A stretch of DNA of 64,000 bases. It comes from Phycisphaerae bacterium (lineage in GTDB: Bacteria; Planctomycetota; Phycisphaerae; Sedimentisphaerales; UBA12454). Shown here in pieces: positions 22,455 to 56,545 of this stretch (position 1 is its first letter; the number at the start of each line of letters is the position of its first letter). Location: the NCBI GenBank assembly GCA_041478555.1, contig JBGOWI010000002.1:14622-78621 (forward strand), read 5' to 3'. The notes beneath the pieces are model-generated. The model saw only the letters and a program-made list of their open reading frames with translations, was not told the origin of the DNA and did not search any database. The position numbers and the translations under genes are program-made.

Positions 22455-22456
22455 AT

Positions 22457-24127: not shown

Positions 24128-24170
24128 TTGACTTTTTTAACACTTTTTCTCTATATTATCTGTCTTGCCT

Positions 24171-24199
24171 ATATTACCATTTTTGTTAAAAAAAGTCAA
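24171..24199 (-). promoter_or_regulatory. Sigma70-like promoter of the 556-aa/secretin/lipoprotein operon
   Basis: The minus strand reads TTGACT-17 nt-TAATAT, about 45 nt upstream of the ATG at 24127. Confidence 0.5.
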
Positions 24200-24378
24200 T
24201 TTTAAGGCCATACTCTCTGTTTATTTTGCCTGTTTTACCAAGATAGGATTAGTTTCAGACTAATAAAAGCGTTTTTTTAGGACTTTGATTCAGGTATTGT
24301 CACTATTTTTCCGGTACCCCTCTCTCCGAGCCTGAATTTAAAAGTAGGTATGACGATTTTTTTTGACTGCTGGGTTTT

Positions 24379-24485
24379 TATACCGCACCTATTTAAAAAG
24401 TATATCTTTGGTAAAACGTAAGTATCTTTTTAATAAGTTCTTGAATACAATGATTGGGGCGCCGAAATTAAATAGGTGCGGTATA
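24379..24485. repeat. Perfect 18-bp inverted repeat with a 71-nt spacer
   Basis: TATACCGCACCTATTTAA (24379-24396) and TTAAATAGGTGCGGTATA (24468-24485). Confidence 0.9.
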
Positions 24486-24490
24486 ATCTA

Positions 24491-24531
24491 TAAAAAAACA
24501 GGAAGGGCTTTCAGTTAATCAACCCTTCCTG
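24491..24531 (-). terminator. Rho-independent terminator after the 169-aa subunit gene
   Basis: The minus strand reads CAGGAAGGG-loop-CCCTTCCTG followed by TTTTTTTA. Confidence 0.8.
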
Positions 24532-24555
24532 CTTGAACTTTTTCAGACCTGCTTT

Positions 24556-25065
24556 TTACAGATTGTCATTCACAGTCAGCAATACTGTTGCGACCCGCTG
24601 AACGTGAGGACTTGAAGGTATGTAAGTAATGTCCACGTTGTTCACTGCTGCGCCGACATAAAATATCCTGCCGACCGGTGGCGGGGCGGGAATATCAAAT
24701 GCCATCTCATCAGTATCATCTTCCAGTATCCACTCAGCTCTGTTCTGAGGCAAATTCTGCGGATAGTCGGCAAGAGCAACCAGATACTTTGCAGTTGGTC
24801 CCAGTGATGGACCGAAGGGGACTATCATAACTGTAACCAGAACCGGAAAGTTATGCGTCATAGTTACGGCAGTATAGCCACGGTAAAGCGGATGAACACC
24901 AGATGGGTCGCCGAGTGTAAGTAGTATTTCTGCCGGGTCAATTGTAAGGATTACTGTTTTGTCAATCAGCATCACAACAGGAATTTGCGCTTGAGCCAAT
25001 ATCCCACCAGCAAATGCCGGAGCTGCTGTCAAAGCAATTGCTGCTAATGTCAGTATTTTTTTCAT
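24556..25065 (-). CDS. Small secreted beta-rich protein, putative fibre subunit (paralog of 25982-26488)
   Basis: Signal MKKILTLAAIALTAAPAFA|GG. The mature protein begins with an alternating hydrophobic stretch (IPVVMLIDKTVILTIDP) and ends VATVLLTVNDNL. It is collinear with its 168-aa paralog. Confidence 0.8.
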   Translation of the reverse strand: MKKILTLAAIALTAAPAFAGGILAQAQIPVVMLIDKTVILTIDPAEILLTLGDPSGVHPLYRGYTAVTMTHNFPVLVTVMIVPFGPSLGPTAKYLVALADYPQNLPQNRAEWILEDDTDEMAFDIPAPPPVGRIFYVGAAVNNVDITYIPSSPHVQRVATVLLTVNDNL

Positions 25066-25164
25066 TGTTTCTCGACTCCTTTCTTAGATTAAGTTTTGCT
25101 CCAAAAGACCGAATAATTAACCTGATGAGGCTGGCCATAATTTCTTTGTTCTAACCTCCGATTT

Positions 25165-25374
25165 TTAACCTCCCTTCTCCCCTGTTTTTCGTGAGTTAAT
25201 AACACCTTTATAGTAAGAATCAGATGTCTGCTCTCCGTAGTGAGAAATACTGCCAAGTTTGATTTCATCAGATACAGAAATGCTGGCGAATGGTTCAAGA
25301 GGGTATGGCTGTGCCTGCAACACTGCTCCACCCCAGAGGCGGAACATCAAAGTTACTGACAACCTCCGTGCCAT
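25165..25374 (-). pseudogene. Truncated copy of the 145-aa subunit gene (first ~50 codons retained)
   Basis: MARRLSV...LEPFASISVSDEIKLGSISHYGEQT aligns with EPFASISVPDKIDLGSASQYGQQT of 26842-27264 and then diverges to a stop. The flanks show that a few hundred bp present in cassette 2 (the rest of the subunit gene plus part of the long leader) are missing here. Confidence 0.6.
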
Positions 25375-25405
25375 CTTCGCTCCTTCCCTAATTTATCCTA
25401 TTCCT

Positions 25406-25435
25406 TTACTATGCCAGCCTTTTTGAAATTGTCAA
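25406..25435 (-). promoter_or_regulatory. Sigma70-like promoter of subunit cassette 1
   Basis: The minus strand reads GGGTATTGACAATTTCAAAAAGGCTGGCATAGTAA. The same -35 context is repeated at 27410-27420. Confidence 0.4.
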
Positions 25436-25746
25436 TACCCAAACCTCCTGTTTTTTCTATTTTATATAAGTTCCCTATTTATAATTATTAAGGATAAAAA
25501 CAGATAGCATAAATTTAATCATCGAGTGTCCGCCGTTCGTTTAGCACCTCAAAGAGGTAGGGGATCGCGTCAAACTGTTGCGGTTGCGAGGCTCGTTTCG
25601 TATTACGTTGTACGATTGCGTCTTAAATGACATTTCACGATAAACGCAGCCGTAACGGGCATCGCAACCAATTAGTTAAATTTCCCCTGTATCTTTACTT
25701 CTCTAAAAATCGGCGTAATCTGTTTAATCAGTGATTGATAAACACA

Positions 25747-25786
25747 ATAAAAAAGCAGGAAGGACTAATTACTTAGCCCTTCCTGC
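25747..25786 (-). terminator. Rho-independent terminator after the 168-aa subunit gene
   Basis: The minus strand reads GCAGGAAGG-loop-CCTTCCTGC followed by TTTTTTA. Confidence 0.8.
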
Positions 25787-25981
25787 TTAAACTTTTTCAG
25801 ATTGCAGGATTTTTTAAAATCCTACCCTCTTTGCCGCATCATTGCAGCCGCTTACTGTTCATACTGCAGAGTACTTATTTCCTGCAGATGAAACAACGTT
25901 GTTACATCCGTTACGAACTTTACATTTTACCCTTGTATCCTCCGAAGCTTTAGCGAAGGAGGGTAACAATACTCCTGCTCT

Positions 25982-26488
25982 TTACAGATTGTCACTTACT
26001 GTCAGCAATACTGTTGCAACCTGCTGAGCAGCAGGACTTGAAGGTATAAAGCCAATGTCCACATTAGCTACTGCTGCACCGACATAAAATAGCCTACCGG
26101 CTGGCGGGGCGGGAGTCGTGAAGTCCATGTCGTCGGTATTGCCTGCTGCTTGCCACCCAACGTACGTTTGAGGCAAATTAATCGGGAAGTCGGCAAGAGC
26201 GACATGATATGTGGCAGCTGCTCCCAGTGATGGACCGAAGGAGTTTATCAATGCTGTAACTGTAACTGGGAAGTTATGCGTCATAGTTACGCCAGTATAG
26301 CCACGATAAAGCGGATTACCTAAATTCGGGTCGCCTATCGTAAGTAATATTTCTGGCGGGTCGACTGTAAGGTTTACGGTCTTGTCAATCACCATCATAA
26401 CAGGAATCTGCGTTTGGGCTAATATCCCGCCGGCGAATGCCGGAGCTGCTATCAAAGCAATTGTTACTAATATCAGTAATTTTTTCAT
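25982..26488 (-). CDS. Small secreted beta-rich protein, putative fibre subunit (paralog of 24556-25065)
   Basis: Signal MKKLLILVTIALIAAPAFA|GG. THNFPVTVTALI and a C-terminal VATVLLTVSDNL are shared with the paralog. Confidence 0.8.
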   Translation of the reverse strand: MKKLLILVTIALIAAPAFAGGILAQTQIPVMMVIDKTVNLTVDPPEILLTIGDPNLGNPLYRGYTGVTMTHNFPVTVTALINSFGPSLGAAATYHVALADFPINLPQTYVGWQAAGNTDDMDFTTPAPPAGRLFYVGAAVANVDIGFIPSSPAAQQVATVLLTVSDNL

Positions 26489-26841
26489 TGTCTTAACTCC
26501 TTTCTTAAGTTAAGCTTTGCCCTTGTAAGGCCGATAAACAGCCTGACAGGACTAACCATAATTAGGTGTTCGGGACTCTCTTTTGGGTCTCGAACTCTAC
26601 TGCAGCGGGCATATCCGCTTGGGCGACTGGGTGGGTTGCCCGCTCTTTCTAACTCCACCTGAGCCGCAGCCTGCATCTTGTTTACAGCCTAAAGACCAGG
26701 CCGGTTTCTTTGGGCTGTTGCATCGCCTCTCGTTTTTTGTCCTACCCTCCTTTCTCCCCTTGCGAGTTTTTTCTTCTATAGGTTAATAACATTTTTTAAA
26801 TGAGCTTTATTTACACGCAACTACGCTGTTGCGTCTGTTTT

Positions 26842-27264
26842 TCAGGGTTCAGCCATTATGGTAATGACCAGAGTGCCTGTATATTCTCCTGCCGAGTCGC
26901 TGGATTTGATATCAATAGTGAACTTTAGATTTATATCCACATCGACGCCTTCAGGAGGAGTGCCTGACGAGACTAATGGCGGCACCATTTCAACATTGGT
27001 TCTTTCCTTCGGAATAAAACCTCCGGCAGGACTTGCAAACGCTCCTCCGATTGATGCGATGATACGATGAGGACAATTAGCGGTTATATGTACTTTTATG
27101 GTGGAATTAAATGTTTGCTGACCATACTGGCTGGCACTGCCGAGGTCGATTTTGTCGGGTACGGAGATGCTGGCGAACGGTTCTGCCTGTAGAGTAGTTC
27201 CTCTCCCCAGGCAGAATACTAAAATTACTGCCACAAATAGTATTATGTATCCACTCCGTGCCAT
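26842..27264 (-). CDS. Small secreted protein with SCPU/fimbrial-subunit-like features
   Basis: The track ORF starts at 27279; ATG 27264 has GGAGGAGCGAAGG upstream and matches the paralog start. Signal ..ILVFCLGRGTTLQA|EP. IKVHITANCPHRIIASIGG and the C-terminal SAGEYTGTLVITIMAEP resemble spore-coat-U/Csu-type and type-1 pilin ends. Confidence 0.75.
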   Translation of the reverse strand: MARSGYIILFVAVILVFCLGRGTTLQAEPFASISVPDKIDLGSASQYGQQTFNSTIKVHITANCPHRIIASIGGAFASPAGGFIPKERTNVEMVPPLVSSGTPPEGVDVDINLKFTIDIKSSDSAGEYTGTLVITIMAEP

Positions 27265-27387
27265 CCTTCGCTCCTCCATATATTTATCCTGTTTTTTCCT
27301 TTCTTTAGTTGAAACGTTACATTTTCAAGGTTGAAATTGCCGATAATACAAAAACTTATGCTCGTTAAACCATTTCTTATAGGACTT

Positions 27388-32167: not shown

Positions 32168-34423
32168 TCACCGAGTCTCGATGTAAGGTTTGCCAGCCTT
32201 ATACAAAACCAGCCGGCTTTTAATCTCCTTTTTGAGCGTTTCTTGTTCGGAAGATTGGCATAACTCCAAAGCCTTTTCTGCTGTCTCTACGGCCTTACCG
32301 AAGGCACCCGTCGCAGCATAGGTCGCAGCCAGCGTATCCAATAATCCGGGTTTTTTGTATTTAGTAAGTTCGCAGGCGTGCTGCGCAAGTTTGAGCGCCC
32401 TATCGGGATTGTGGACCGTAGTTTTCTTACTTGTAGCCAGTAACCAGGCCAGGTCATTCATAGGCTCAACCCAGTCAGGTTTGAGTCGCAGCGCCTCCTC
32501 GAAATGTACAATGGCCTCATTGATTTTACCCCTTTGCGCCAGAACCTGCCCAAGATAGTAATGCGCCTCCGCATGGTTAGGGTCCAACTGCAGTGCTTCA
32601 GTAAAATGTACGGCAGCATCATTGTGGTTGCCTTGGAGGACTAAGGCATAGCCTAAATCGGTATGAGCATCGGCAAAATCAGGCTTTATCCGCAGGGCTT
32701 CGGTAAAGTATTTAATGGCTTCATCGAGTTTGCCCTGCCGGCCAAGTGCAAGACCAAGAGCGTTGAGTACATTCGGGTCATCCGGCTCCGTCTGAAGAGA
32801 TTTTCGATATTCCTCGGCGGCCTGGTCAAATTTTTCCTGCCGGTAGAGTACTGCACCAAGGTTATTGCGGGCAATAGCATTTTGGGGCTGAGTGAGCAGG
32901 ATTTTTTCATACTCTTTCACCGCTTCTTCGAGTTTGCCACTGTTGGTCAATGCGTATCCGAGATTGATACGGAAGTTGACAAAATTAGGTGCGATTTGAA
33001 GGGCTTTATTGAAGGGCGAAATGGCCTCAGCGAATTTGCCCTGCTTCATAAACGTATCCGCTATGTTGGCGTAAGCTATGTAGTTATCATTGGTTACTTC
33101 GAGTGCGTGCTGAAAAAGTGTTATGCTGTCTTTCCAATATCGCTGCTGGAGGTGTGCCTGTGTGGCGAGTGCGAATAAAACTATCAGTGCGGACGCCCAG
33201 AGTGCGATTTTTCGATGCGGCCATTTTCCGAGCAGTTCGGGTAAGCCCCAGGCAATAATAATAAATAAACCCGTCAGGGTGATGTAGCTGTAGCGGTCGG
33301 CCATAGCCTGGTCACCAACCTGGACAAGACCAATAACAGGCACGAGTGTTCCAAGAAACCAAAACCAGCCTGTGACAAGGTATCGACGGTTTTTGGAGAA
33401 TCGAAGTATAAGGATTGTTACGACTATCAGAACACCGGCAGACATCGCGGCATGTGAAAACGACACGCCCTGGACGGGGTGTGGATAAAACACGGCCAAT
33501 CGGCTCGGCCATATCATTTTCCTTATGTATTCCATGTAAGAGACAAGGGCGTTGGAGATGCGAAACTTTAGAGGAACCAGAGTAATCGGCACCACTATTC
33601 CGCCGCTTCGCTGTGCAAAGAAGGTAACGACACTTGAAACTGCCGAGAGGGCAAAGAAAGGGGTTTTTTCCCAGATCAGGTGATAGAGTATCAGTTTGTG
33701 AAAGTGGATATCCATATGTTTTTCATTCTGTTTGCCAGTTTTGACGACGGCCTGTCCGGACGGGATGCGAGCAAGGGGCCAATAGTCCAGCAGCAGTAAT
33801 ACAAACGGTAAAGTTACGAGCATGGACTTTGCCATGATGCCCAGAGCGAAGGTCAACAATGTTAACAGATAGCGAGCAGTGCCCGGATGTTTGACATATC
33901 GCAGATACGCAGCCATCGTAAGTATCCAGAAAAAAGTGCTCAAGACATCTTTACGCTCGGTGACCCAGGCAACAGATTCGACATGGAGCGGGTGAAGAGC
34001 GAATAAAGCCGCCACAAATGCGCTCGGCCAGAGCGAACCTGTCATCTGTTTTAGAACAACAAAGAGGAGCAGGGTATTCGCAATATGAAAAACCAGATTG
34101 ATAAGATGATGGCCTCCGGCGTTATGGCCGAAGAGCTGCCAGCCCAGCATATGTGAAAGCCAGGTTAAGGGATGCCAGATACTGGTGTGAGTGGTAGTGA
34201 AGGCCCACTTGATGGCTTTAAAAGTGATACCAGCCTGAATGTCCGGATTTTGGTAGACATAGACGTTGTCATCATAATTAACAAAATCATATGTCCAGAC
34301 CTGATAATAAACTGCTATGGTAGCAAACACCAAAGCCGCGCAAATCCAAAATGTGTGAAAATAATTGGGGTTATAATGGTTTTTGTTCACGTGTCCCTCG
34401 ATTATGTAAAGAGTTTTAGCCAT
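32168..34423 (-). CDS. TMTC-like membrane protein: GT-C-type (DUF1736) multi-TM N-terminal domain plus C-terminal TPR repeats
   Basis: YDDNVYVYQNPDIQ..IWHPLTWLSHMLGWQLFG..HHLINLVFH is followed by ~10 TM segments and ~8 TPR units (..A..Y..AL...P....A...LG..). Confidence 0.75.
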   Translation of the reverse strand: MAKTLYIIEGHVNKNHYNPNYFHTFWICAALVFATIAVYYQVWTYDFVNYDDNVYVYQNPDIQAGITFKAIKWAFTTTHTSIWHPLTWLSHMLGWQLFGHNAGGHHLINLVFHIANTLLLFVVLKQMTGSLWPSAFVAALFALHPLHVESVAWVTERKDVLSTFFWILTMAAYLRYVKHPGTARYLLTLLTFALGIMAKSMLVTLPFVLLLLDYWPLARIPSGQAVVKTGKQNEKHMDIHFHKLILYHLIWEKTPFFALSAVSSVVTFFAQRSGGIVVPITLVPLKFRISNALVSYMEYIRKMIWPSRLAVFYPHPVQGVSFSHAAMSAGVLIVVTILILRFSKNRRYLVTGWFWFLGTLVPVIGLVQVGDQAMADRYSYITLTGLFIIIAWGLPELLGKWPHRKIALWASALIVLFALATQAHLQQRYWKDSITLFQHALEVTNDNYIAYANIADTFMKQGKFAEAISPFNKALQIAPNFVNFRINLGYALTNSGKLEEAVKEYEKILLTQPQNAIARNNLGAVLYRQEKFDQAAEEYRKSLQTEPDDPNVLNALGLALGRQGKLDEAIKYFTEALRIKPDFADAHTDLGYALVLQGNHNDAAVHFTEALQLDPNHAEAHYYLGQVLAQRGKINEAIVHFEEALRLKPDWVEPMNDLAWLLATSKKTTVHNPDRALKLAQHACELTKYKKPGLLDTLAATYAATGAFGKAVETAEKALELCQSSEQETLKKEIKSRLVLYKAGKPYIETR

Positions 34424-34730: not shown

Positions 34731-34777
34731 TTGACGTGCTTAAACAAAACTGGTACTATCCAGTAAACGTTTACTTG
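34731..34777 (+). promoter_or_regulatory. Promoter plus LacI-type operator, copy A
   Basis: TTGACG-17 nt-TACTAT, then the palindrome AGTAAACGTTTACT (34762-34775). Confidence 0.65.
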
Positions 34778-35016
34778 TTCTTTAATCATTTAGAACGTGT
34801 AATTATCGGGTGTTGACAAGTCCCCCATAGGGAGGAGGACGAAATCAATCTCCCAAAGAGTGTAAAAGATATGCTCCGAATGCAGTCAGAGTTTGGAGGT
34901 GTGTCTTGTAAAATTTATTTATAGTGTTTGGTATTCGAATGTTAAACTTTTAAAGTGTCGTATTTGTAACCCGAAATGAAGAAGTGTTCCTTAATTTTTT
35001 TAAGGAGGAGTAGATT
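34778..35016 (+). promoter_or_regulatory. Conserved ~240-nt 5' leader, copy A (candidate cis-regulatory RNA)
   Basis: Near-identical to 38205-38439; the core is shared with 36003-36125. It contains a CTCCGAA-11 nt-TTTGGAG hairpin, C-rich/G-rich alternative pairing segments and the SD-covering hairpin TCCTTAA-ttttt-TTAAGGA (34988-35006). Confidence 0.5.
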
Positions 35017-35760
35017 ATGAAGAAACTAATTGTTTGTTGTTTTATGTTGGTTGTGTTAAGCATGCCAGCATATGCGGATTTCACTGTGACGACAATTGCC
35101 GACCTGTCTGCATGGCCGGATTCGCCGCAGGTTAAATGCACAGTGAATCCTGGCACTGACACCACACCCGCCAACGGCCAACCCTATTCGCCAGAGCAGA
35201 ACTGGGGTGGTGGCGCTCTGCAGCAGCTTGGTCAGGTTTTTATGGTTCCCAGCTCGTACATCGGAACTCCAACATTGGACAAGGTTGCCGTTAAACTCAG
35301 CGGTACTGCTGGCACCTTGAGCGTCAAGTTGTATGACCTTTGGCCGGGAGACTTCAATGATAATTTCCACGGATGGGGCAATGGCAACCAGGGGACCTTG
35401 AGTCCTGTTAACCTTACGACCAACGCGACTCTCTTGATTAACGACACGTGGGCTTATCCAGGCAGTGCCACCGCGAAGGTGTATCTGTTGGATTTCACTG
35501 GCAGTCAAGAGGTAGCACTTGCGTATGCTGAAAAGTATATGTTCGTACTGGATCATGATAATACTTTTCAGGTGTCGTGGTACCGCAATGGCCTCTATAG
35601 CTACACCGATGGTGATGTGTATAGAGACACCGGCGCGGGTACTACTATGCAGTATGTCAATGGTGCTGGCCGCGAGGCCGGTATGGCTGTCTATATTCCC
35701 GAGCCGGCGACTATCGCTCTGTTAGGTCTTGGACTGGCTTTGCTCAGGAAGCGCAGCTAA
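35017..35760 (+). CDS. Secreted PEP-CTERM-anchored protein (unassigned beta-rich ectodomain)
   Basis: Signal MKKLIVCCFMLVVLSMPAYA and C terminus IPEPATIALLGLGLALLRKRS. A strong RBS taaggaggag is present. Confidence 0.9.
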   Translation: MKKLIVCCFMLVVLSMPAYADFTVTTIADLSAWPDSPQVKCTVNPGTDTTPANGQPYSPEQNWGGGALQQLGQVFMVPSSYIGTPTLDKVAVKLSGTAGTLSVKLYDLWPGDFNDNFHGWGNGNQGTLSPVNLTTNATLLINDTWAYPGSATAKVYLLDFTGSQEVALAYAEKYMFVLDHDNTFQVSWYRNGLYSYTDGDVYRDTGAGTTMQYVNGAGREAGMAVYIPEPATIALLGLGLALLRKRS

Positions 35761-35797
35761 TTTGTAACTGACTATTTATTTAGTTAAGTTAATAAAG

Positions 35798-35847
35798 CGC
35801 CAACGTAGCCTGCACTGAAATGTGCAGGAGACGGAGGCGTTTTTTTT
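35798..35847 (+). terminator. Rho-independent terminator
   Basis: CCTGCAC-tgaaat-GTGCAGG lies within a longer GC stem, followed by T8. Confidence 0.75.
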
Positions 35848-35955
35848 GCGCAGATTTGCCAAAATTTCAGGGTACTTATATCTTCTATCTTTCTGATTGT
35901 GCTTTTTGACGGACCAAAAAACGGAAAAAGAACAAAAGTAAAGAACAAAAAAACC

Positions 35956-36002
35956 TTGACAAGCCCAAACGAGGATGATAATATCAAGTAAACGTTTACT
36001 TG
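35956..36002 (+). promoter_or_regulatory. Promoter plus LacI-type operator, copy B
   Basis: TTGACA-17 nt-TAATAT, then the perfect 18-bp palindrome CAAGTAAACGTTTACTTG (35985-36002). Confidence 0.7.
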
Positions 36003-36208
36003 TTCTTTAGTTATTAGAATGTGCAATTATCGGGTGTTGACAAGTCCCCCCATAAGGGAGGAGGACGAAATTAATTTCCCAAAGAGTGTAACGACATGCT
36101 CCGAATGCAGGCAGAGTTTGGATGTGTGTATCGGGTTTGTATAGAAATGTTTGAAAAAAACATTAAGGAAATAACAGGTAAAAATTATTATAATTAGGAG
36201 AGGGTGCT
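36003..36208 (+). promoter_or_regulatory. Conserved 5' leader, copy B (shared core, different 3' part)
   Basis: The core 36003-36125 matches copies A and C. The 3' part carries an AATGTTT-gaaaaa-AAACATT hairpin that is also found at 63785-63803. Confidence 0.45.
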
Positions 36209-37975
36209 ATGAAATATAAAATTGAATTATTAATTGTGGCTTCGGTGTTTTTTTGCCTGTTACTGGCGCAGGCTGCCCCGGCCGGCAACACGATGAAAAC
36301 TCTCTATATAGATGGAGTGAAGGTCAATGAGACTAATGACAACACCAGTGGTCTTACTTGGCCTGAGCCGCCGAAGGACCGTATAACGATTGGAGCTGAG
36401 AACGACCGCTGGTACCTCTATAACGAATATATTGGAAAAATTGATGATTTCGCGGTTTACGCAGGTGTTCTGAGCGCTACCCGCATAAAGGCGCATTACG
36501 ATGCTAACGCGGACTATACTGCTTATAAAAATGCAGTGCAGGCGGATGCACCGTTACTATGGCTGAGGTTTGATGATGCCAGCGTGGCTAACGAAGCTGC
36601 TGCTGAAAATTCAGGCAGCATAGGGATAGACGGCAATTACGTTCAAACAGGCGGCAGCCCTTTTACTCAGGTACCCGGTTTCAATGCCGACAGTAATGCT
36701 TTAAACTTCCCTGATACTGTTGCTGATGCTGCCGGCCACTGTGTGGACATGTGGGACGGCAACGGGGACTTCGGCGAGGACCTCGATGGTGATGTAACAG
36801 TCGAGCTATGGGTCAACTTTACCGACATTGGTAACCCATTGGAGCCTGAAAACGACTGGCCGAGATTTTACCAGCACGGAGGCGGTTATGGTCTTATGGT
36901 TAGCGGCCCCAACGAATTAGGTATTCAAGGCGGCGATGCTACAAATTATATAGGTTTTCCAGATGAAAATGACATTAATGACGGTCAGTGGCACCACATT
37001 GTCGTTACCTATGACTCAACTTACGGGGCGCCAAATCTACCGCCTGCCGCCACGTATGTCGAGGAGGTGAACAAGGATAATCCCGTCCTGTGGCTGCGGT
37101 TTGAGGATACTCAACCGAAAGACTACTCTGTCGCCGACGGCAACCATTGGGTTGGTTATGGTACTGCGTTGAGCATTGTAGATAAAGTTGGCGGAATCGG
37201 AAAGTCCGCTTACTTAAATGGTCCAGATGATGGAGCCGTCTATTGTGCTGCAGCGACGAATAACCCGAACGCACCTCCCTTAGTTAGCGAGAGCTATGAA
37301 GTTTTTGATAACAATTATGCCTTTGCCCCCAACGACATAACTTTTGAGATGTGGTACAAGACCCTTCCGACCGGCCAGCCGCAGCCGGGAGACTACGGTA
37401 TATTCTTCCAGCAGTTAGGGAGTGATGAGCCAAGGGCTCCGGGTGTGAGTAATTCCGGCGGCACAATACGTGTTTTCTGCGGCAGTGACACTTGGTATAG
37501 CGGCGTGAGCTCATATTTCGACCAGAAGTGGCATCAATTAGTCGTTACTTATGATGAAGAATACGAAGGCGACCCTTGTTCAATGCACGTACAATTGTAT
37601 TTGGATGGTATTAAAAAGGGCGATGCGAATTTCACCGGCACTGGAGCAAAACTTGGGCCTGAATTGTCTCACGTTATGGTCGGCGCTGAAAGGGACATTG
37701 GGTATACCTGGAATCCATTTCGCGGGTATGTCGATGAGTTTGCTATCTACGCGGGCATCCTGGACCCAAACCGTGTCCTGACTCATTACTCGGCCTGGCA
37801 GCCCCACAATTGTGCGGAGATGTGGGATAGAGGGTTTGGATTGGCTGGCGACTTAAACCACGACTGCAAGGTGAACTTTGCTGATTTTGCCGAGCTTGCG
37901 TTAGACTGGGCAAGCTGCAACGAGCCAAATGCTCCAGGGCAGCCGCCTATCCCGGGTTGCACCCCAAACTGGTAA
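36209..37975 (+). CDS. Secreted multi-LamG (concanavalin-A-like lectin) protein with a C-terminal Cys-containing dockerin-like tail
   Basis: A signal peptide is present. IDDFAVYAGVLSATRIKAHY and VDEFAIYAGILDPNRVLTHY are LamG ends. The tail reads GDLNHDCKVNFADFAELALDWASCNEPNAPGQPPIPGCTPNW. Confidence 0.85.
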   Translation: MKYKIELLIVASVFFCLLLAQAAPAGNTMKTLYIDGVKVNETNDNTSGLTWPEPPKDRITIGAENDRWYLYNEYIGKIDDFAVYAGVLSATRIKAHYDANADYTAYKNAVQADAPLLWLRFDDASVANEAAAENSGSIGIDGNYVQTGGSPFTQVPGFNADSNALNFPDTVADAAGHCVDMWDGNGDFGEDLDGDVTVELWVNFTDIGNPLEPENDWPRFYQHGGGYGLMVSGPNELGIQGGDATNYIGFPDENDINDGQWHHIVVTYDSTYGAPNLPPAATYVEEVNKDNPVLWLRFEDTQPKDYSVADGNHWVGYGTALSIVDKVGGIGKSAYLNGPDDGAVYCAAATNNPNAPPLVSESYEVFDNNYAFAPNDITFEMWYKTLPTGQPQPGDYGIFFQQLGSDEPRAPGVSNSGGTIRVFCGSDTWYSGVSSYFDQKWHQLVVTYDEEYEGDPCSMHVQLYLDGIKKGDANFTGTGAKLGPELSHVMVGAERDIGYTWNPFRGYVDEFAIYAGILDPNRVLTHYSAWQPHNCAEMWDRGFGLAGDLNHDCKVNFADFAELALDWASCNEPNAPGQPPIPGCTPNW

Positions 37976-37999
37976 TAAAAGCTTAATCGTTAATAAAAC

Positions 38000-38041
38000 G
38001 TCAACGTAGCCTCCTTGGGAGGAGACCGAGGCGTTTTTTTT
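38000..38041 (+). terminator. Rho-independent terminator
   Basis: A CCTCC-ttg-GGAGG core stem within a longer pairing, followed by T8. Confidence 0.6.
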
Positions 38042-38157
38042 GCGCAGATATGGCCAAAATTTCAGAGTGCTTATGTCTTCTATCTTCCTGATTGTCTGAT
38101 TGTGCTTTTTGACGGACCAAAAAACGGAAAAAGAACAAAAGAAAGAACAAAAAAACC

Positions 38158-38204
38158 TTGACAAGCCCAAACGAGAATGATACTATTAAGTAAACGTTTA
38201 CTTG
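38158..38204 (+). promoter_or_regulatory. Promoter plus LacI-type operator, copy C
   Basis: TTGACA-17 nt-TACTAT, then AAGTAAACGTTTACTT (38188-38203). Confidence 0.7.
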
Positions 38205-38439
38205 TTCTTTAGTCATTAGGATGTGTCGTTATCGGGTGTTGACAAGTCCCCCATAGGGAGGAGGACGAAATCAATTTCCCAAAGAGTGTAAAAGATATGC
38301 TCCGAATGCAGTCAGAGTTTGGAAGTGTGTCTTGTAAAATTTATTTGTAGTGTTTGGTATTCGAATGTTAAACTTTTAAAGTGTCGTATTTGTAACCCGA
38401 AAGAAGAAGTTTCCTTAATTTTTTTAAGGAGGAGCAGAA
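38205..38439 (+). promoter_or_regulatory. Conserved ~240-nt 5' leader, copy C
   Basis: Near-identical to copy A, including the SD-covering hairpin at 38412-38430. Confidence 0.5.
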
Positions 38440-39192
38440 ATGAGAAAATTATTTGTTTTGTTAGTTGTAGCAGCTTTGAGCATGTCGGCCTATGCAGATA
38501 AGGTTATAGGCACCTGGGAGGTTGGAGAGGTTAACGGCGGTGGATGGAGTGATTGGTCCAGCCAAGCCCGCATTGGTCCGTTCCCTCAAACTATAAATGG
38601 CAACACGTATAACCAAAGCACAATTGGTGTTTCTAATGGGAACAACTCCCTGTCGGTGGCCGCAAAATCAGGTTGGCAGCAGTGCTTGACTATTCGTAAC
38701 TATCAGAGCACATTAGGTTTTTACATGTCGGATTTCCTCAATAACAACAAATTCCAGATTGACGTTACCTATGATAGCGGTAGCTGGCCCTCAAATACGA
38801 GTTATGCTCAGGTGTACCAGTTAGCTATGCAGACCTCAGGCTATGGAATGCATGATGTAGGTGGAACAGCTGCCCCAACCGGCGCCAATGGCGTAGTGTT
38901 TACTGATACGCTCAACCCGGGTTATCCGGGAGGTTTACCCCTTGTGAATCAGGGTACGCCGGGAACCGTCCTATCGGGAACATGGACGTGGGATTACTCC
39001 GCAATATTACCCGGAGGGTCCTATACCGGTAACAAAGTTTCGGCTTCCGATTCGTATGTGAATATTATGTTCGCATTGAATTCCAATGCGGCCGGGACTT
39101 ACTACTTCGACAATGCCCGGCTTACTCCCGAGCCGACGACAATCGCTCTGCTGGGTCTTGGATTGGCTCTGCTCAGGAAGAAAAGAAGCTAA
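38440..39192 (+). CDS. Secreted PEP-CTERM-anchored protein (unassigned beta-rich ectodomain)
   Basis: Signal MRKLFVLLVVAALSMSAYA and C terminus LTPEPTTIALLGLGLALLRKKRS. Confidence 0.9.
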   Translation: MRKLFVLLVVAALSMSAYADKVIGTWEVGEVNGGGWSDWSSQARIGPFPQTINGNTYNQSTIGVSNGNNSLSVAAKSGWQQCLTIRNYQSTLGFYMSDFLNNNKFQIDVTYDSGSWPSNTSYAQVYQLAMQTSGYGMHDVGGTAAPTGANGVVFTDTLNPGYPGGLPLVNQGTPGTVLSGTWTWDYSAILPGGSYTGNKVSASDSYVNIMFALNSNAAGTYYFDNARLTPEPTTIALLGLGLALLRKKRS

Positions 39193-39228: not shown

Positions 39229-39279
39229 GCGCCACCTGTTCCTACAGTAATCATTGTGGGAAACAGGGGCGCTTTTTTT
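39229..39279 (+). terminator. Rho-independent terminator
   Basis: GCGCCACCTGTTCC-loop-GGAAACAGGGGCGC followed by T7. Confidence 0.8.
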
Positions 39280-41592: not shown

Positions 41593-43329
41593 TCAATTTT
41601 GTTGCGAATTTGTCTTAGCTTTTGGCGGTTCCGGCATCTTGCCTTGTTTGGCCAGCACTAACGCAAGGTTGTTGCGGGCTGGTTCATAATCCGGTTTTAG
41701 CGCCAGCGCCTTTCTGTAGTTTACCTCCGCCAGGGTGAGGTTGCCTTTTTGGGCGTATGCCGAACCCAGATTGTTGTACATCTTGTGCATATCCGGCCAG
41801 TCATTTCTTTCCTGCAGTGCCTCGGTAAGACAGGTGATGGCTTCATCGAGTTTCTTCTGTTCCAGTAGCGTTGTGCAGAGATTCCCGCGGGCCTCCGGAT
41901 AACCGGGGCAGATACGGAGAGCCTCCTTAAAGTGCTGGGTTGCTTCTTCGTATCGTCCCTGCTCGAAGAGATACAGACCATAGTTGTCGTGCATAACGAA
42001 GTTGTTCCTGGTGACGGCAATAGCTCGTTGATAAAGCGTAGGGCTGTCCCGCCAGTAACCCACCTGAATCCGCGTCAACAGCACCATAGCAATCAACACC
42101 GCAGTGGCTGCGGCTGCTGCCAGTGGCTTTGGATGCGGCAGTTTCGCAAAAATTTCAGTTGTGCCCCATGCTATTATGATAAAGATGCCTATTGAAGGCA
42201 GATAGGTGTACCGGTCGGCCATAATCTGGCTGCCCACCTGTACCAGCCCAATCACCGGTACCAGCGTTCCGAGATACCACAGAAGGCCAACGACCAGCCA
42301 GCGCCTGCCTCGCCCCCATACCTTCAGCAGCACTATTACTCCAACAACCGCCAGCACTACAGCGTCTATTGTTGGCTTGTCCGAAAGCGGATACAAAGCC
42401 GCCAAACCTTTCGGATAAAGCATTTTCATAATGTAATTAAAATAACATCCCAGTGCGTTTATTACGCGGGTAGGCAAAGGCCAAGCCTTTAAGCTCCACA
42501 CTACCTCGCCGTGTTGCTGTGCGACGAAGGTAACGACACTCAGAACTGCCGACAGCGCAAACAGGGGGACTTTCTCCGTCACTAACCATCCCACCGCTGT
42601 TTTTTGGGGAGACGGTCCGTTTGGTGTGGCTTCGGACAGATTTGTATTTTCAATTTGGCATCCCCATTTGACTCTGTCAAGGGGCCAATAGTCGAGAAGC
42701 AGCAATACGAATGGCAGAGTGACCACCACCGGCTTGGTCATAATGCACAGGGCGTATGTCCCACAAAGCAATATGTATCGTCTAATGGCTGGTTGCTTAG
42801 TGTACCAAACATACACGGCCATTGTGAGAAACCAGAAAAGACCGCTCAGCACCGTTTTTCGTTCTGCAACCCAGGCAACCGACTCCACCTGGAGCGGGTG
42901 CATCGCAAAGACCCCGGCCACGAATGCACTTGCCCATATTGTCCCGGTCATTTCTTTGAGAATCCAGAAAAGCAGCAGCGAGTTCACAGTATGAAATAGC
43001 ACACTGATGAGGTGATGTCCACGCGGGTTCAGTCCGAAAAGCTGGCAATCCAATATATGACTTAGTGTGGTTAAGGGATGCCACATATGGGCATGTGGCT
43101 CGGTGAATGCCCAGATAATTGACTGGCGAGTTATCCCGCCGGTTACGTTGGGATTTTCTGTCACATATATGTGGTCGTCGTATCGGACGAAGTCGTTGTG
43201 CCGTACCGGCTCATAGGCAATAAAAGTGCTCACTGCCAGAGCCAAGTAAATCAGGAAAACATACAACTTGCTACGTACTTGCTTTGCCATCAGGTCTATT
43301 CCTGCAAATGAACCAAGTCTGCTTGGCAT
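41593..43329 (-). CDS. TMTC-like GT-C (DUF1736) membrane protein with a short TPR tail; paralog of 32168-34423
   Basis: YDDHIYVTENPNV..MWHPLTTLSHILDCQLFG..HHLISVLFH. An alternative start is ATG 43290 (MAKQVRSKLYVF). Confidence 0.75.
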   Translation of the reverse strand: MPSRLGSFAGIDLMAKQVRSKLYVFLIYLALAVSTFIAYEPVRHNDFVRYDDHIYVTENPNVTGGITRQSIIWAFTEPHAHMWHPLTTLSHILDCQLFGLNPRGHHLISVLFHTVNSLLLFWILKEMTGTIWASAFVAGVFAMHPLQVESVAWVAERKTVLSGLFWFLTMAVYVWYTKQPAIRRYILLCGTYALCIMTKPVVVTLPFVLLLLDYWPLDRVKWGCQIENTNLSEATPNGPSPQKTAVGWLVTEKVPLFALSAVLSVVTFVAQQHGEVVWSLKAWPLPTRVINALGCYFNYIMKMLYPKGLAALYPLSDKPTIDAVVLAVVGVIVLLKVWGRGRRWLVVGLLWYLGTLVPVIGLVQVGSQIMADRYTYLPSIGIFIIIAWGTTEIFAKLPHPKPLAAAAATAVLIAMVLLTRIQVGYWRDSPTLYQRAIAVTRNNFVMHDNYGLYLFEQGRYEEATQHFKEALRICPGYPEARGNLCTTLLEQKKLDEAITCLTEALQERNDWPDMHKMYNNLGSAYAQKGNLTLAEVNYRKALALKPDYEPARNNLALVLAKQGKMPEPPKAKTNSQQN

Positions 43330-46274: not shown

Positions 46275-48101
46275 TTACAGTTTTGGGGAAACCAGCGTTC
46301 CTGTTAGTATAACGGTTGTGATTGAATTTTTGGGCAAAATCAAGGGCGTATTTTCCTCGAATTTGCCTGTAAGTACACAATTTTCTGTCTGGCTTGTTCG
46401 ATAAACTTTGCTGGCTCTAATTTTAAAATTGCCGGTCGAAAGTTCAAGTGCAATATCGGTGGCGGCGGAAGTGTTTATTATTACAATTGATATTTGCCGG
46501 TTATCAGGGCTGATAAAGGCTGTTGTTCTCAAAGCAGGAGAATTTGTTGAGGCTTCAATACGCTGCCACTCTGCATCTATGAAAGCTGAAAATTGCTTGA
46601 ATGCGTAATAAGGGGGGTTGATGGTATAGCCGCCACTGCCCTTAGGAGCGTCAAGTGTCACAAGGCCGCCGCCAGTGGTGGCTTTCCGGAACAGGCTCCA
46701 GTAGCAATATGAGGTTACACCTTCATAAACAAGGCAGTTGTGGATATGCCGGGCTGTGTACAACGCGTCAGTAAAATCAGAGTTTCGTGAATACTCCGTC
46801 TGAAAAAGGGGCTTATAGCCGTATTTAGCAGCGTATTTTTTTATTGCCGCGACATAACCCTCAGGGTTGTCATAACTGCCGCTGCCGTCGCTGTAAAGGT
46901 GATGGACCCAACCGTAAACGTGGTTGGTATCGATAATCGCGTCAATATATGCCCGAGACCTTCCGAAGCCCATTGTTTCGGGGGCAAGCATCTTCGGCAT
47001 ATTTTTTCCCATTCGGGAATATAGTTTCTGATAGACTGCCTCGAAAGCGAGGTTATAGCCTGCCCAGTTTGAATCTTCTTTAGGCAGGAATTTGCAGGAA
47101 GCATAATTTGTCTCGATGTCACACTCATTTTGAATGCTTATATAATCGGCCTCTATGCCGTGATTGGAAAGGTCGGCCAGACTGTCCGCCCACCATTGCG
47201 CAAAATCATTATACATATAATTGCCATTAGCGTCTTTTTTAAGCGTTCCGCCGACCGGATTGTTATTGTTCTTGAGCCAAGCCGGCGGTGACCACGAGGC
47301 AATCATAATCTTTATTGGATGACTCAATGCCGTTTTGGCGTCGGCGATAATTTGTGCCGTGTCGTCTATATAGTTGCTGTCGATGCCATAGAGGTTTCGG
47401 AATCTGTAAATATCAGACCCCAGCTCTTTGAACAGAAGAATGTAAAGCTCGGTTTTCCTGGGGTGTGCTGTCAGCCAGTCTATGTCATAGCCGCCGGAGG
47501 CCCCAAAGCCTTCGAATTGCTGATAACGTATTGTTGCATCAACCCTGCCCGCAGCATTAGGGTCGATAGGCTTGGGTGGGCCGGCAGGCGGGCCGAATAC
47601 ATTCACATCATCGACATAGAAATTTACTCCTGCGGCAGGACCTTCAAAGTAGACATCAAGAGTTCCCAGCTCGCCGGTGAAATTCAGTGTGAAATTCCCT
47701 GAGAGCGGCACCCAGTTGCTGTCGTTGCCGACGCCGCCGGCTACGTGAATATAGTTGGTGTCGGCGCTGTCAGCCTGAGCAACGGTTAAAGAGACATTGG
47801 CACTGGCTGCGTTTTCGAGTTTGACCCAGCCGGATATCTGGTAAGTTTTCCCATTTTCCATCTTTCCCAAAAGGGACTGTTTGATTCCCTGCCAGGTATC
47901 AGTTCTGCTGTATGCTCTGCCGCTTTGGGAGCCGCTGTGTTTTTCGCTTGTGGATGTTGAGAACGGGCAGTTGCGCCCGGCCCAGCCGGTAGCGCCGTCT
48001 TCAAACCCCGGATTAGTAAGCAGGTTGGTATCACCGTAGCAGGGCGATAATGATAGAGCCACAGCGAAGAACAAACACATATAAAAATGCTTAACAGGCA
48101 T
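46275..48101 (-). CDS. Secreted CBM4/9/22-like plus GH30 glycoside hydrolase (no dockerin-like tail)
   Basis: The track ORF starts at 48125; ATG 48101 (MPVKHFYMCLFF) has AAAGGA upstream. NLLTNPGFEDGATGW is a CBM start. FEGFGASGG, ISIQNECD and FQTEYS are the GH30 acid/base and nucleophile regions. Confidence 0.82.
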   Translation of the reverse strand: MPVKHFYMCLFFAVALSLSPCYGDTNLLTNPGFEDGATGWAGRNCPFSTSTSEKHSGSQSGRAYSRTDTWQGIKQSLLGKMENGKTYQISGWVKLENAASANVSLTVAQADSADTNYIHVAGGVGNDSNWVPLSGNFTLNFTGELGTLDVYFEGPAAGVNFYVDDVNVFGPPAGPPKPIDPNAAGRVDATIRYQQFEGFGASGGYDIDWLTAHPRKTELYILLFKELGSDIYRFRNLYGIDSNYIDDTAQIIADAKTALSHPIKIMIASWSPPAWLKNNNNPVGGTLKKDANGNYMYNDFAQWWADSLADLSNHGIEADYISIQNECDIETNYASCKFLPKEDSNWAGYNLAFEAVYQKLYSRMGKNMPKMLAPETMGFGRSRAYIDAIIDTNHVYGWVHHLYSDGSGSYDNPEGYVAAIKKYAAKYGYKPLFQTEYSRNSDFTDALYTARHIHNCLVYEGVTSYCYWSLFRKATTGGGLVTLDAPKGSGGYTINPPYYAFKQFSAFIDAEWQRIEASTNSPALRTTAFISPDNRQISIVIINTSAATDIALELSTGNFKIRASKVYRTSQTENCVLTGKFEENTPLILPKNSITTVILTGTLVSPKL

Positions 48102-48161
48102 TTTGTCCTTTTCTACCGGTAGCAATTGCCGTTCAAATCTGCTTCAAGGGTCAATCCTGAA

Positions 48162-49445
48162 TCATTGACTTGCTGGTAAGTGGGTCGGTTCGCCAATGTT
48201 GGTCAGCTCAATGGTGAAGTCGTTGGGACCGCCGACAGTAACGTCAATAATTGCAACAGTAGGTTTCGCTTTCGCAGACGTAAGCGTAATGCTGTATTTT
48301 CCATAAAAGCCTCTGAAATCTGCATTTCCGTTATTATCAGTGATTGATGAATCGTTTTTTGTAGTCCATTCGTCCATCAGTGCTTCGTACCTTCTTCCAG
48401 CTTCGTTCAGGGTCCAGTCGTTATTAACAATGAACCAGTTAGGATACCAACGTGAGCCCTCCCAGAAGCCCCACATTAATATGCCCTCAACAGCGGGATG
48501 GCTGAAAGCTATGCGGTAAAAGTCCTCCATATCATTAGCACGTAAATTTATATCGGCCTGGTTGACGTCAAACTCGGTAATCCAGATAGGCAGGCCAAGC
48601 TGTGCCAGACTGTCGAGAACCTTCAATGCATTGGTACGGTTAAAGTTCACTTCTATGTGGCCCTGAACGCCGATAGCGTGAATCGGTGCGCCATTGTTAC
48701 GTAGATTAGTGATGAGATTTTTGTATGGCGTCGTATCGTAACGTCCGAATGAAAGCACATCATACTCATTGACAAAGAGCCTGCAGTTCGGGTCTATCTG
48801 GTTAGCCGCCTGGAACATCCAGTACCATATCGCTTCGCCGAGGTGGTCTTTGTAGAATGAGCCGGCCAGCATTTCATTATCGACGTCCCAGTGGACGAAT
48901 TTCCCTTTGAAGTGATTCACGACACTGTTCATTCGGCTCTCAACCGCGCTGCGCAGCGGACTGGCGGCCGGCAGCGGGGCATAAGCCAGATTCCTTAACC
49001 ATTGCTGTGCGTATTTTTCCTTTTCCCAATAAATACAATGGCCTCGCATAATGATTCCATTCGCCGCGCACCAGTTGTAGATATTGTCCGCAGTTTTATA
49101 GTCCACCTTGCCCTGCATCAGTTCGTTCCTGTACCACTTTGATTCATTTTCCATCACCGCCCACTCAAAATGGTTTTTGAAGAAGTTGGCATAGTTAGTA
49201 TTAGTCATAACGTTATTATTGATGCACGAGCCGAAGGCGAAGTGATGCTTTATCTGGCTGATTTTGACCTCGATACCTGGCACCGGCAGCTTGGAGCCGT
49301 ATGGCGAGATAGCAGTGATTCGGAAGTTGCCTTTACGGATTTGCTCTGTTCTCTTGTTCGCATCGGTTTTCCAGTCGCCGTAAGAGGATGATAACAATAG
49401 AGCCGCCATAAAAAACAAGCACGTATAAAAATACTTAACAGGCAT
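48162..49445 (-). CDS. Secreted GH10 endo-beta-xylanase-like enzyme with a C-terminal beta-sandwich
   Basis: The track ORF extends to 49577 and overlaps the upstream gene. ATG 49445 (MPVKYFYTCLFFMAALLL) has AAAGGA upstream. FAFGSCIN, WAVMENESKW, HWDVDNEM and WITEFDV are GH10 motifs. Confidence 0.85.
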   Translation of the reverse strand: MPVKYFYTCLFFMAALLLSSSYGDWKTDANKRTEQIRKGNFRITAISPYGSKLPVPGIEVKISQIKHHFAFGSCINNNVMTNTNYANFFKNHFEWAVMENESKWYRNELMQGKVDYKTADNIYNWCAANGIIMRGHCIYWEKEKYAQQWLRNLAYAPLPAASPLRSAVESRMNSVVNHFKGKFVHWDVDNEMLAGSFYKDHLGEAIWYWMFQAANQIDPNCRLFVNEYDVLSFGRYDTTPYKNLITNLRNNGAPIHAIGVQGHIEVNFNRTNALKVLDSLAQLGLPIWITEFDVNQADINLRANDMEDFYRIAFSHPAVEGILMWGFWEGSRWYPNWFIVNNDWTLNEAGRRYEALMDEWTTKNDSSITDNNGNADFRGFYGKYSITLTSAKAKPTVAIIDVTVGGPNDFTIELTNIGEPTHLPASQ

Positions 49446-49455
49446 CTGTCCTTTT

Positions 49456-52638: not shown

Positions 52639-52821
52639 TCCTCACTCCTAAAAAAGATGAGCCAGCGAGTTTAGCTACAAAGTTTAACTACAAAATAGTA
52701 TACTTGGTTTGTCCCCTAAAATCAAGGTTTTTTGCCATTTTGCGGAGTTTTTTGCGGGCAGAATAGGCAGAAATCAGCTAAAAAAGAAGATTATGCCTTC
52801 TTTATTTCACTTCATTTGATT

Positions 52822-55899: not shown

Positions 55900-56545
55900 T
55901 TTCTTCTTCCTTAATTATGTTTTGGCTAAAATGCACGTTATAAAATATGGTTTTAGAATGGCTGAGTTGGTGATTCATTGATGTATCAGCCTTGCCTGCG
56001 GCATTAGGCTCGATTGGCTTGGGCGGGGCGGCAGGCGGGCCGAATACGTTTACGTCATCGACGTAGAAATTTACGTCTGCGGCAGGACCTTCAAAGTAAA
56101 CATCGAGAGTTGTCAACGTGCCGACGGCATTCAGGGTGAAACTTCCTGAGAGCTGGACCCAATTACTGTCGTTGGCGGTTCCCTTGGCTATGTTAATATA
56201 TCTGGTGCCTTTATCATCCTTTTGCTCAATGGATACAACGACATCAGCGCCGGCTGCGTTTTCGAGTCTGACCCAGCCGGAAATTTGATAAGTGTTTCCA
56301 TCCTGTACTCTGCCCAGGATAGACTGTTTGATTCCCTGCCAGTTTTGGGTTCTGCCGGATGCCTTTCCACTGTAAGTGCCGCTGTGCTTTTGTTCAGTTG
56401 TTGTTGTGAACGTGCAACCGCGAGCAGCCCAGCCATTGCTATCCTCGAACCCTGGATTTGCAAGTATGTTGGTATCGCCGTAACAGGGCGACAATGCCAA
56501 ACAGCCGGCCAAAAACAAGACCATACCAAAATACTTAATGGACAT
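55889..56545 (-). pseudogene. CBM-only remnant of a CBM-GH30 gene (truncated at ~55980)
   Basis: MSIKYFGMVLFLAGCLALSPCYG..NILANPGFEDSNGW.. is collinear with the N termini of 56562-58724 and 46275-48101 up to ..PKPIEPNAAGKADTS. It then reads into the leader of the GH10 gene and stops. Confidence 0.6.

Follow-up and report, generated by a model that had tools for sequence, protein, structure and literature searches.

Planctomycetota, and the Sedimentisphaerales especially, are rich in glycoside hydrolases (GHs); little is understood of the way in which they retain polysaccharides at their surface, since they are without the Sus-type machinery of Bacteroidota. In the polysaccharide utilization loci (PULs) of the latter, the nearest functional counterparts of the proteins considered here are SusE/SusF and the surface glycan-binding proteins (SGBPs), which are anchored by an N-terminal lipid. 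Other described systems that bear on the comparison are the beta-sandwich carbohydrate-binding modules (CBMs) catalogued in CAZy, the cohesins of cellulosomal scaffoldins and type I dockerins, and the cargo proteins of the PEP-CTERM/exosortase system. The latter have Ser/Thr/Asn-rich ectodomains (PMC1569441) and are generally tied to exopolysaccharide (EPS) production and the extracellular matrix (PMC1569441, PMC9850573). Within the Sedimentisphaerales, multi-modular xylanases with CBMs have been described (PMC11131199), as has a two-cohesin scaffoldin in Limihaloglobus sulfuriphilus (in a genomic survey, PMC11557425), while cohesin/dockerin pairs have been proposed in other planctomycetes (PMC6461901). 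Here, two small secreted proteins, P1 and P2, are described from a stretch of 64,000 nucleotides (the 64-kb window, that is, the whole of the DNA that was analysed; G+C content 46%) of contig JBGOWI010000002.1 of a Phycisphaerae bacterium (assembly GCA_041478555.1). The nearest relatives of the studied proteins are found in metagenome-assembled genomes (MAGs) labelled Sedimentisphaerales (class Phycisphaerae, Planctomycetota). On balance, P1 and P2 are probably exosortase-sorted surface glycan binders, CBM-like and non-catalytic, that are co-regulated with an array of GH10 and GH30 enzymes.

Three genes occupy the forward strand of the window between 34.7 and 39.3 kb, namely P1 (35017-35760, 247 aa), a gene for a Laminin_G_3 (LamG) protein, and P2 (38440-39192, 250 aa). 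An earlier note on this DNA had pointed to two PEP-CTERM proteins of about 250 aa at 35017 and 38440, and this was borne out: both open reading frames (ORFs) are present, and both products pass the two curated PEP-CTERM models (PF07589, 22.7 bits for P1 and 21.9 bits for P2 against a cut-off of 20.7; TIGR02595, 19.5 and 21.4 bits against a cut-off of 16). Each protein opens with a Sec-type signal peptide (aa 1-20, 35017-35076, in P1; aa 1-19, 38440-38496, in P2) ending in AYA before a D at position +1. It continues with an ectodomain of approximately 205 residues, which in P1 is a predicted beta-sandwich (aa 21-226, 35077-35694) and in P2 is modelled as a CBM-like beta-sandwich (aa 20-228, 38497-39123). 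The PEP-CTERM segments follow (aa 227-247, 35695-35757, in P1; aa 229-250, 39124-39189, in P2), and the respective C-termini, IPEPATIALLGLGLALLRKRS and TPEPTTIALLGLGLALLRKKRS, combine a Pro-Glu-Pro motif, a hydrophobic helix and a basic cluster. With a Ser+Thr+Asn content of 23% in P1 and 30% in P2, the ectodomains have a composition typical of PEP-CTERM proteins (PMC1569441). Indeed, P1 and P2 resemble the cargo described by Haft et al. in 2006 (PMC1569441) in every respect that concerns their build, that is, in the signal peptide, the Ser/Thr/Asn-rich ectodomain with little homology, the order of PEP motif, helix and basic cluster, and the presence of several paralogues per genome. They differ from it in lying within a LacI-controlled glycan-degradation regulon instead of an EPS locus, and in that a CBM-like role can be assigned to their ectodomains. 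No Pfam or NCBIfam family other than PEP-CTERM was matched by either protein, even at E<=10, and with neither domain covered by a model in these collections, the P1 and P2 domains are, judged by sequence, candidate new CBM families.

The AlphaFold2 model of P2, built on an alignment of its relatives, is a beta-sandwich (pLDDT 92.5, pTM 0.88). When it was compared with the PDB using Foldseek, the best match was the CBM22 of a xylanase (4xup, E 1.8e-4), and further matches comprised the CBM27 of mannanases (1oh4, 1pmj, 1of3), CBM16, CBM28, CBM11 and CBM4, the solved CBMs being matched with Foldseek probabilities of 0.97-1.0 at sequence identities of 9-17%. Beta-sandwiches other than CBMs, specifically an astacin zymogen with a MAM domain and a flagellar sheath protein, also appear in the top ten. 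The description as having an unassigned fold can therefore be set aside for P2; for P1, the model is of moderate confidence and the matches are generic beta-sandwiches. Measured against the CAZy beta-sandwich CBMs (CBM22, CBM27, CBM16, CBM28, CBM11, CBM4/9), P2 shares the modelled jelly-roll beta-sandwich, and the terminal strand of its family, YYFDNARL, resembles the YVDDV strand that ends the CBM_4_9 domains of the window; the family also has a set of invariant aromatic residues. Conversely, no existing CBM family was matched by sequence, the modules of P1 and P2 stand alone with a PEP-CTERM anchor rather than forming part of an enzyme, and the fold of P1 is less certain.

How the P2 domain is used elsewhere agrees with such an assignment. 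A collection of 5.8 billion proteins holds 54 relatives of P2, and among the 47 that were aligned all but one (46 of 47) carry a PEP-CTERM end. A scan of genomes, which used a closer subset of the family alignment, the full alignment being too diverse, located the domain in 11 loci of Sedimentisphaerales-type MAGs (labelled with an L below), in relatives that are 43-50% identical. Only one of these loci (L002) has the standalone PEP-CTERM form, which there adjoins an orthologue of the tetratricopeptide repeat (TPR) protein encoded at 41593-43329, as it does in the window. In other loci, the P2 domain forms the N-terminal part of larger proteins, either GH5 proteins (L005, and also L004, in which it is split over two overlapping ORFs) or LamG proteins of 826-1074 aa (L006-L009 and L011). 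A domain that is either fused to GHs or placed alone on an anchor has the profile expected of a CBM.

For P1, eight relatives were returned by a word-indexed search, while a profile made from the ectodomain alone, signal peptide and anchor excluded, found 169 cluster representatives among 1.84 billion proteins, the best 150 of which were classified. Of these 150, 115 are short, at least 95 of them having a PEP-CTERM end and the remainder mostly looking incomplete, and 35 are long proteins that carry one to three copies of the P1 domain N-terminally. The GH30-type motif xDGFGx is present in at least 16 of these 35, and seven of them match Pfam models for GH30/GH59 of clan GH-A (including P0063, P0082, P0087 and P0096); in P0063, three tandem copies of the P1 domain precede the GH. 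Thus, like the P2 domain with GH5, the P1 domain occurs attached N-terminally to GHs in other genomes, in its case of the GH30 type. No relationship between P1 and P2 was found by hhalign. The Pfam Dockerin_1 model was matched by two of the 35 long relatives, and several P1-domain proteins unite a dockerin-type EF-hand motif and a PEP-CTERM end in one chain. Standalone homologues of P1 lie between GH115 and GH116 genes (L016) or between a GH35-like gene and an orthologue of the LamG gene (L013-L015). When the window is compared with the genome of the last three loci, identity amounts to 74% for the GH35-like gene and 69% for the LamG protein including its tail, but only 33% for the protein at the P1 position (35017-35760 against L015:525-1199), which, by its sequence, either evolves fast or is a distant paralogue that has taken the place of the original.

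A further line of evidence for a role in glycan use is the regulation of the two genes. P1, the LamG gene and P2 are separate transcription units on the forward strand, each with a sigma-70-like promoter, an operator, a leader and an intrinsic terminator. Specifically, the promoter of P1 (34731-34759; TTGACG, a 17-nt spacer and TACTAT, with an extended TG) has the same architecture upstream of the P1 homologues of L013-L016, and it is followed, directly 3′ of the -10 hexamer, by a perfect 14-bp palindrome, AGTAAACGTTTACT (34762-34775), which is kept in L002 and L013-L016. The conserved 5′ leader (34776-35016) includes a hairpin core, GCTCCGAATGCAGTCAGAGTTTGGA (34873-34897), and the intrinsic terminator (35797-35847) consists of a GC-rich hairpin and T8 and is homologous to that of the LamG gene. 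The LamG cassette comprises a promoter (35956-35984), an operator (35987-36000), a leader (36001-36208), the gene for a secreted protein of 588 aa (36209-37975) and a terminator (38013-38041). That of P2 has its promoter at 38158-38186, its operator at 38189-38202, a conserved leader at 38203-38439, in which 187 nt (38216-38402) are 96% identical to the upstream region of P1, and a terminator at 39229-39279, again a GC-rich hairpin, with T7. All three promoters are near the sigma-70 consensus with an extended TG, with the palindrome directly 3′ of the -10 hexamer, and this layout of promoter, operator and leader is kept upstream of P1, LamG and P2 homologues elsewhere (L002, L013-L016).

Exact copies of AGTAAACGTTTACT start at 34762, 35987, 38189 and 61140 and a copy with two mismatches at 60907, and the motif has six matches in the window where 0.19 would be expected by chance. 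The exact copy at 61140-61153 lies just upstream of a gene for a LacI-family regulator (61173-62213, forward strand) with a LacI helix-turn-helix and a Peripla_BP_3 domain, while the two-mismatch copy (60907-60920) lies upstream of a divergent GH30/GH10 operon, which has a short leader there. From the pattern of sites, this LacI-family protein probably represses both the three cassettes and the divergent enzyme operon. Operator and leader had both been thought to be shared with the enzyme array; this holds for the operator, in the degenerate form found at the enzyme operon, whereas the leader is confined to P1, LamG and P2.

The cassette leaders, of 210-240 nt in the window and up to roughly 270 nt when those of other genomes are included, have conserved blocks in common, which are found in the window and at L015:322-524, L015:1474-1683, L016:2169-2419 and L002:9722-9994. 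A pattern for the leader core has three copies in the window, as expected, and the hairpin core GCTCCGAATGCAGTCAGAGTTTGGA persists in the leaders of distant homologues. No Rfam family was found in the conserved leaders, and RNAalifold, run on seven leader sequences, returned a hairpin with little covariation. Therefore, an RNA element is not claimed; the leaders may be cis-regulatory RNA or may merely reflect recent duplication.

The co-regulated array on the reverse strand (46275-60920, counting the operator at its upstream end) encodes six enzymes. Three are GH30 proteins with CBM_4_9 domains (58681-60837, 56562-58724 and 46275-48125), one is a GH30 protein (49456-52638) and two belong to GH10 (52822-55899 and 48162-49577), so that the regulon of P1 includes four GH30 genes. 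The GH30 enzymes of the window show weak similarity to glucuronoxylanases of the XynC type, and the enzyme content as a whole (GH10, XynC-like GH30, and GH115 beside a homologue of P1) suggests, at the level of sequence, a hemicellulose such as glucuronoxylan as the substrate. The array also contains an ORF for a 238-aa product (55889-56605), in which a signal peptide is joined to a complete CBM_4_9 domain (107.9 bits) and the protein then stops short. Between this ORF and the end of the GH30 gene 56562-58724 there is an overlap of 44 bases (56562-56605). The two products are nearly identical at their N-termini, and the ORF is probably what is left of a duplicated GH30 gene.

If P1 and P2 are surface glycan binders, they would work as follows. 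Both would be exported by Sec, for which the signal peptides are plain in the sequence, and an exosortase encoded elsewhere in the genome would process the PEP-CTERM signal, leaving the proteins displayed on the cell surface or in a cell-associated polysaccharide layer. The LacI-type operator overlaps each promoter, and the protein encoded at 61173-62213 would repress P1, P2, the LamG gene and the GH10/GH30 operon until a hemicellulose-derived sugar lifted the repression. Once induced, P1 and P2 would bind xylan-type or related plant polysaccharide, or fragments of it, at the surface, and would thereby hold substrate and products in the vicinity of the cell during degradation by the secreted enzymes. 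This would be a role like that of the SusE/F-type proteins of Bacteroidota, made from different parts.

The comparison with SusE/SusF and the SGBPs shows how far the likeness goes. In both cases, the proteins are non-catalytic, CBM-like beta-sandwiches of a diderm surface, encoded beside and co-regulated with GHs, as far as can be judged for P1 and P2 from sequence and modelling. The anchor, on the other hand, is of the PEP-CTERM/exosortase type and not an N-terminal lipid, there being no lipobox Cys at position +1, and regulation involves a likely LacI repressor in place of a hybrid two-component or ECF sigma system. Moreover, there is no sequence relationship between SusE/SusF and P1 or P2, and neither SusC/SusD nor a TonB-dependent transporter was found among the ORFs of the window that were scanned. 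The earlier note had offered SusE/F-like glycan binders as its alternative; its functional part is the reading favoured here, but with no lipobox and no SusC/SusD, membership of the SusE/F family is not supported.

A number of observations weigh against reading P1 and P2 as surface glycan binders. No exosortase (EpsH/Xrt) was detected among the scanned ORFs of the window. The placement of the proteins at the cell surface is deduced, their binding of carbohydrate is a prediction from sequence and models, and beta-sandwich folds serve protein-protein binding too. The link to known CBM families is furthermore not seen at the level of sequence: no Pfam CBM was found in P1, in P2 or in 47 members of the P2 family, searches with the P2 profile and the P1 profiles against PDB sequences yielded insignificant matches only (with no cohesin chain at E<=10), and hhalign detected no relationship of either domain to the CBM_4_9 domains of the window (probability <4%). 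For P1, the model itself is of moderate confidence (pLDDT 66, pTM 0.71), its best Foldseek matches are generic beta-sandwiches, among them the lectin-like domain of Cwp84 (E 1.9e-3) and PHR domains, and the domain also occurs beyond GHs, in proteins with autotransporter, subtilase and GDSL domains.

These properties of P1 are also what favours a first alternative, in which P2 alone would be a CBM and the P1 domain a general N-terminal structural or protein-interaction module, such as a stalk, a spacer or an export-related element. Autotransporter passengers, a subtilase, a GDSL lipase and Ig-rich proteins all can be preceded by a P1 domain, no sequence link connects it to any CBM, and an enlarged P1 profile gave a weak match to a PHR domain in the PDB (E 0.34). 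Such a module would, however, hardly be expected to have the GH30 type as by far its commonest catalytic partner, or to occur in tandem ahead of a GH, as in P0063, which is typical of CBMs. Its standalone homologues adjoin GH115, GH116 and GH35-like genes, and in the window it shares a regulon with four GH30 genes. A purely structural P1 domain is therefore regarded as unlikely, and P1 is taken together with P2 as a glycan binder in what follows.

PEP-CTERM proteins in general are associated with exopolysaccharide and matrix (PMC1569441, PMC9850573), and P1 and P2 might, instead of capturing substrate for the enzymes, serve in the matrix or in adhesion. They would then bind the cell's own exopolysaccharide or glue cells to particles, in the manner of the PEP-CTERM proteins that form flocs in Zoogloea and Aquincola. 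The Ser/Thr/Asn-rich composition of the ectodomains is in keeping with this, and P1 does match the model for the flocculation protein PepA (16.4 bits, E 0.006), but far under the cut-off of 80 bits, and an identification of P1 as a PepA floc protein was rejected on that score. The operator that P1 and P2 have in common with the GH10/GH30 enzymes is of a type used in sugar catabolism, genes for EPS synthesis are not adjacent, and both domains are fused to degradative GHs elsewhere, all of which renders a role in the matrix improbable and is more readily reconciled with glycan binding in the service of degradation.

PEP-CTERM proteins and CBM-like domains meet at one other place in the window. 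A third PEP-CTERM protein, of 204 aa (1126-1740, forward strand), has an ectodomain that resembles CBM_4_9 (23.6 bits, just below the cut-off of 25.9), from which it appears that the combination of PEP-CTERM and CBM recurs as a theme in this genome. Its gene lies directly upstream of a LamG/dockerin-like gene (1868-4921), the same pairing as that of P1 with its LamG neighbour. These two genes head a galactan-type cluster composed of GH2 (6143-8728), GH35 (8725-11127), lacto-N-biose phosphorylase (11208-13451), GH42 (13458-15536) and GH53 (15527-16663). A second perfect 14-bp palindrome, TGTAAACGTTTACA, is located at 8200-8213, within the GH2 gene towards its 3′ end and about 500 bases before the GH35 gene; going by its sequence, it may act as the operator through which a further LacI-type regulator controls the galactan cluster.

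Large membrane proteins with many TPRs flank the PEP-CTERM cassettes on both sides (32168-34423 and 41593-43329, both on the reverse strand), and this flanking is kept at L002:10967-12043 and L015:3510-5498. An N-terminal domain of the PMT_2 type (protein mannosyltransferase-like) is present in 32168-34423 and in the L015 counterpart and was not detected in 41593-43329. Apart from these, the reverse strand carries a cluster (18885-27279) that encodes a secretin of 1189 aa, a protein of 556 aa, two paralogous secreted proteins of 168 and 169 aa (24556-25065 and 25982-26488) and a secreted protein of 145 aa. Pfam yields no family for the three small secreted proteins and only sub-threshold matches for the protein of 556 aa. 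The cluster may be a pilus-like or secretion apparatus, and a pseudopilin-like N_methyl protein is encoded at 5033-5911.

The remaining question concerns the dockerin-like tails of the enzymes, which had been the starting point for a different view of P1 and P2. The motif D-L-N-x-D-C-x-V-x(2,3)-D-L is found in seven proteins of the window (1868-4921, 36209-37975, 49456-52638, 52822-55899, 56562-58724, 58681-60837 and 62361-63761), and a hidden Markov model (HMM) built from the tails added an N-terminal pair of segments in the GH2 protein (6143-8728), which brings the total to the eight proteins counted in the earlier note. The tails themselves map to 37790-37975, 49456-49720, 52822-53090, 56562-56830, 58681-58950 and 63640-63761. 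Two-segment tails are carried by four of the six array enzymes, while the tail of the 36209-37975 LamG protein (aa ~536-588) and that of the 62361 protein have a single F-hand segment each.

Compared with type I dockerins (PF00404), the tails have the same D-x-N-x-D calcium loop followed by a helix, in GH10 and GH30 proteins as two segments, and the top matches of their profile in the PDB are exclusively bona fide type I dockerins (1daq, 2y3n and 2mte; E ~4e-4 and 3.8e-4). On the other hand, Pfam Dockerin_1 scores the GH10/GH30 tails at 15.8 bits, below the cut-off of 22.9, and does not match the tails of the LamG and 62361 proteins; a Cys takes the place of the loop Gly, and one-segment versions and LamG-flanking segments exist. 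Four Cys are invariant in all C-terminal tails: the first lies upstream, the second is that of the calcium loop (DLNxDC), and the other two form a C-N-D/E-P...C pair close to the terminus. Most of the tails finish with N-W. No NCBIfam model exists for this Cys-stabilised module. In the 1868-4921 protein, two F-hand segments (aa ~705-730 and ~990-1013) flank a LamG domain (aa 816-972), and the same is seen in further large secreted proteins, those of L006:9983-12484, L007:4530-7094, L008:9980-12484 and L011:9989-12478. Segments so far apart look as if LamG had been inserted into a dockerin, or as if the two halves clamped it. A search of the 5.8-billion-protein collection with the tail profile gave 13 short fragments only, a number that is unusable as an estimate of the spread of the tails relative to the P1 and P2 families.

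It had been proposed that the PEP-CTERM ectodomains, or glycans on them, are the surface receptors of these Cys-stabilised dockerin-like tails, forming a cohesin-free, exosortase-anchored display similar to a cellulosome. Several features of the locus lend themselves to this. The window has eight proteins with dockerin-like segments and, as had been noted, no cohesin among its ORFs by the Pfam model (PF00963). The tails resemble solved dockerins, and the tail-bearing enzymes share an operator with P1 and P2. PEP-CTERM genes recurrently adjoin LamG/dockerin-like genes (1126/1868 and 35017/36209 in the window, and L015), and the fusion of the P2 domain to LamG/dockerin-like proteins elsewhere is a possible Rosetta-stone hint of physical association. 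Finally, the putative PMT_2-type glycosyltransferases that flank the cassettes could be read in favour of glycans on the ectodomains.

The indirect evidence nevertheless runs against docking. Like cohesins, P1 and P2 are, in their models, beta-sandwiches that are possibly surface-anchored, in a genome rich in dockerin-like modules. Yet they gave no match to the Cohesin HMM at E<=10 and no cohesin signal in the PDB profile searches, and their domains occur in contexts typical of CBMs (fusions to GH5, GH30 and LamG). When their models were examined for a cohesin fold with Foldseek, none was found within the top 50 structural matches of P1 or of P2, and P2 fell into the CBM class, an outcome that had been named beforehand as speaking against the proposal. 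Both domains also occur in cis with dockerin-like segments, in the P2-domain/LamG proteins and in P1-domain proteins (two of the 35 long ones with Dockerin_1), and with catalytic domains of GH5 and GH30, fusions that are classic CBM behaviour, so that a substrate-binding module is the simplest explanation. The divergence at the P1 position (33% identity, against 69% for LamG and its tail) is unlike that of a specific receptor for a conserved tail. Since true cohesins have been reported in Sedimentisphaerales (PMC11557425), a conventional partner of the tails may be encoded outside the 64-kb window. A docking function of P1 and P2 is accordingly disfavoured and, on all of this, very improbable, and the partner of the orphan dockerin-like modules in planctomycetes is a problem that the analysis of P1 and P2 leaves unsolved.

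What is new under the favoured interpretation is a set of surface glycan binders in which an exosortase anchor is combined with ectodomains of two CBM-like families that lack annotation. A full-text literature search, the coverage of which is incomplete, found no description of PEP-CTERM-anchored CBM-like proteins. If P1 and P2 are indeed exosortase-sorted glycan binders, they would provide a concrete and testable substrate-capture component in Planctomycetota, and PEP-CTERM cargo would gain a defined physiological role outside the formation of biofilm matrix. In addition, the two ectodomain families recur on enzymes of GH5 and GH30, so that recognising these domains could improve the annotation of carbohydrate-active enzymes (CAZymes) in PVC genomes.

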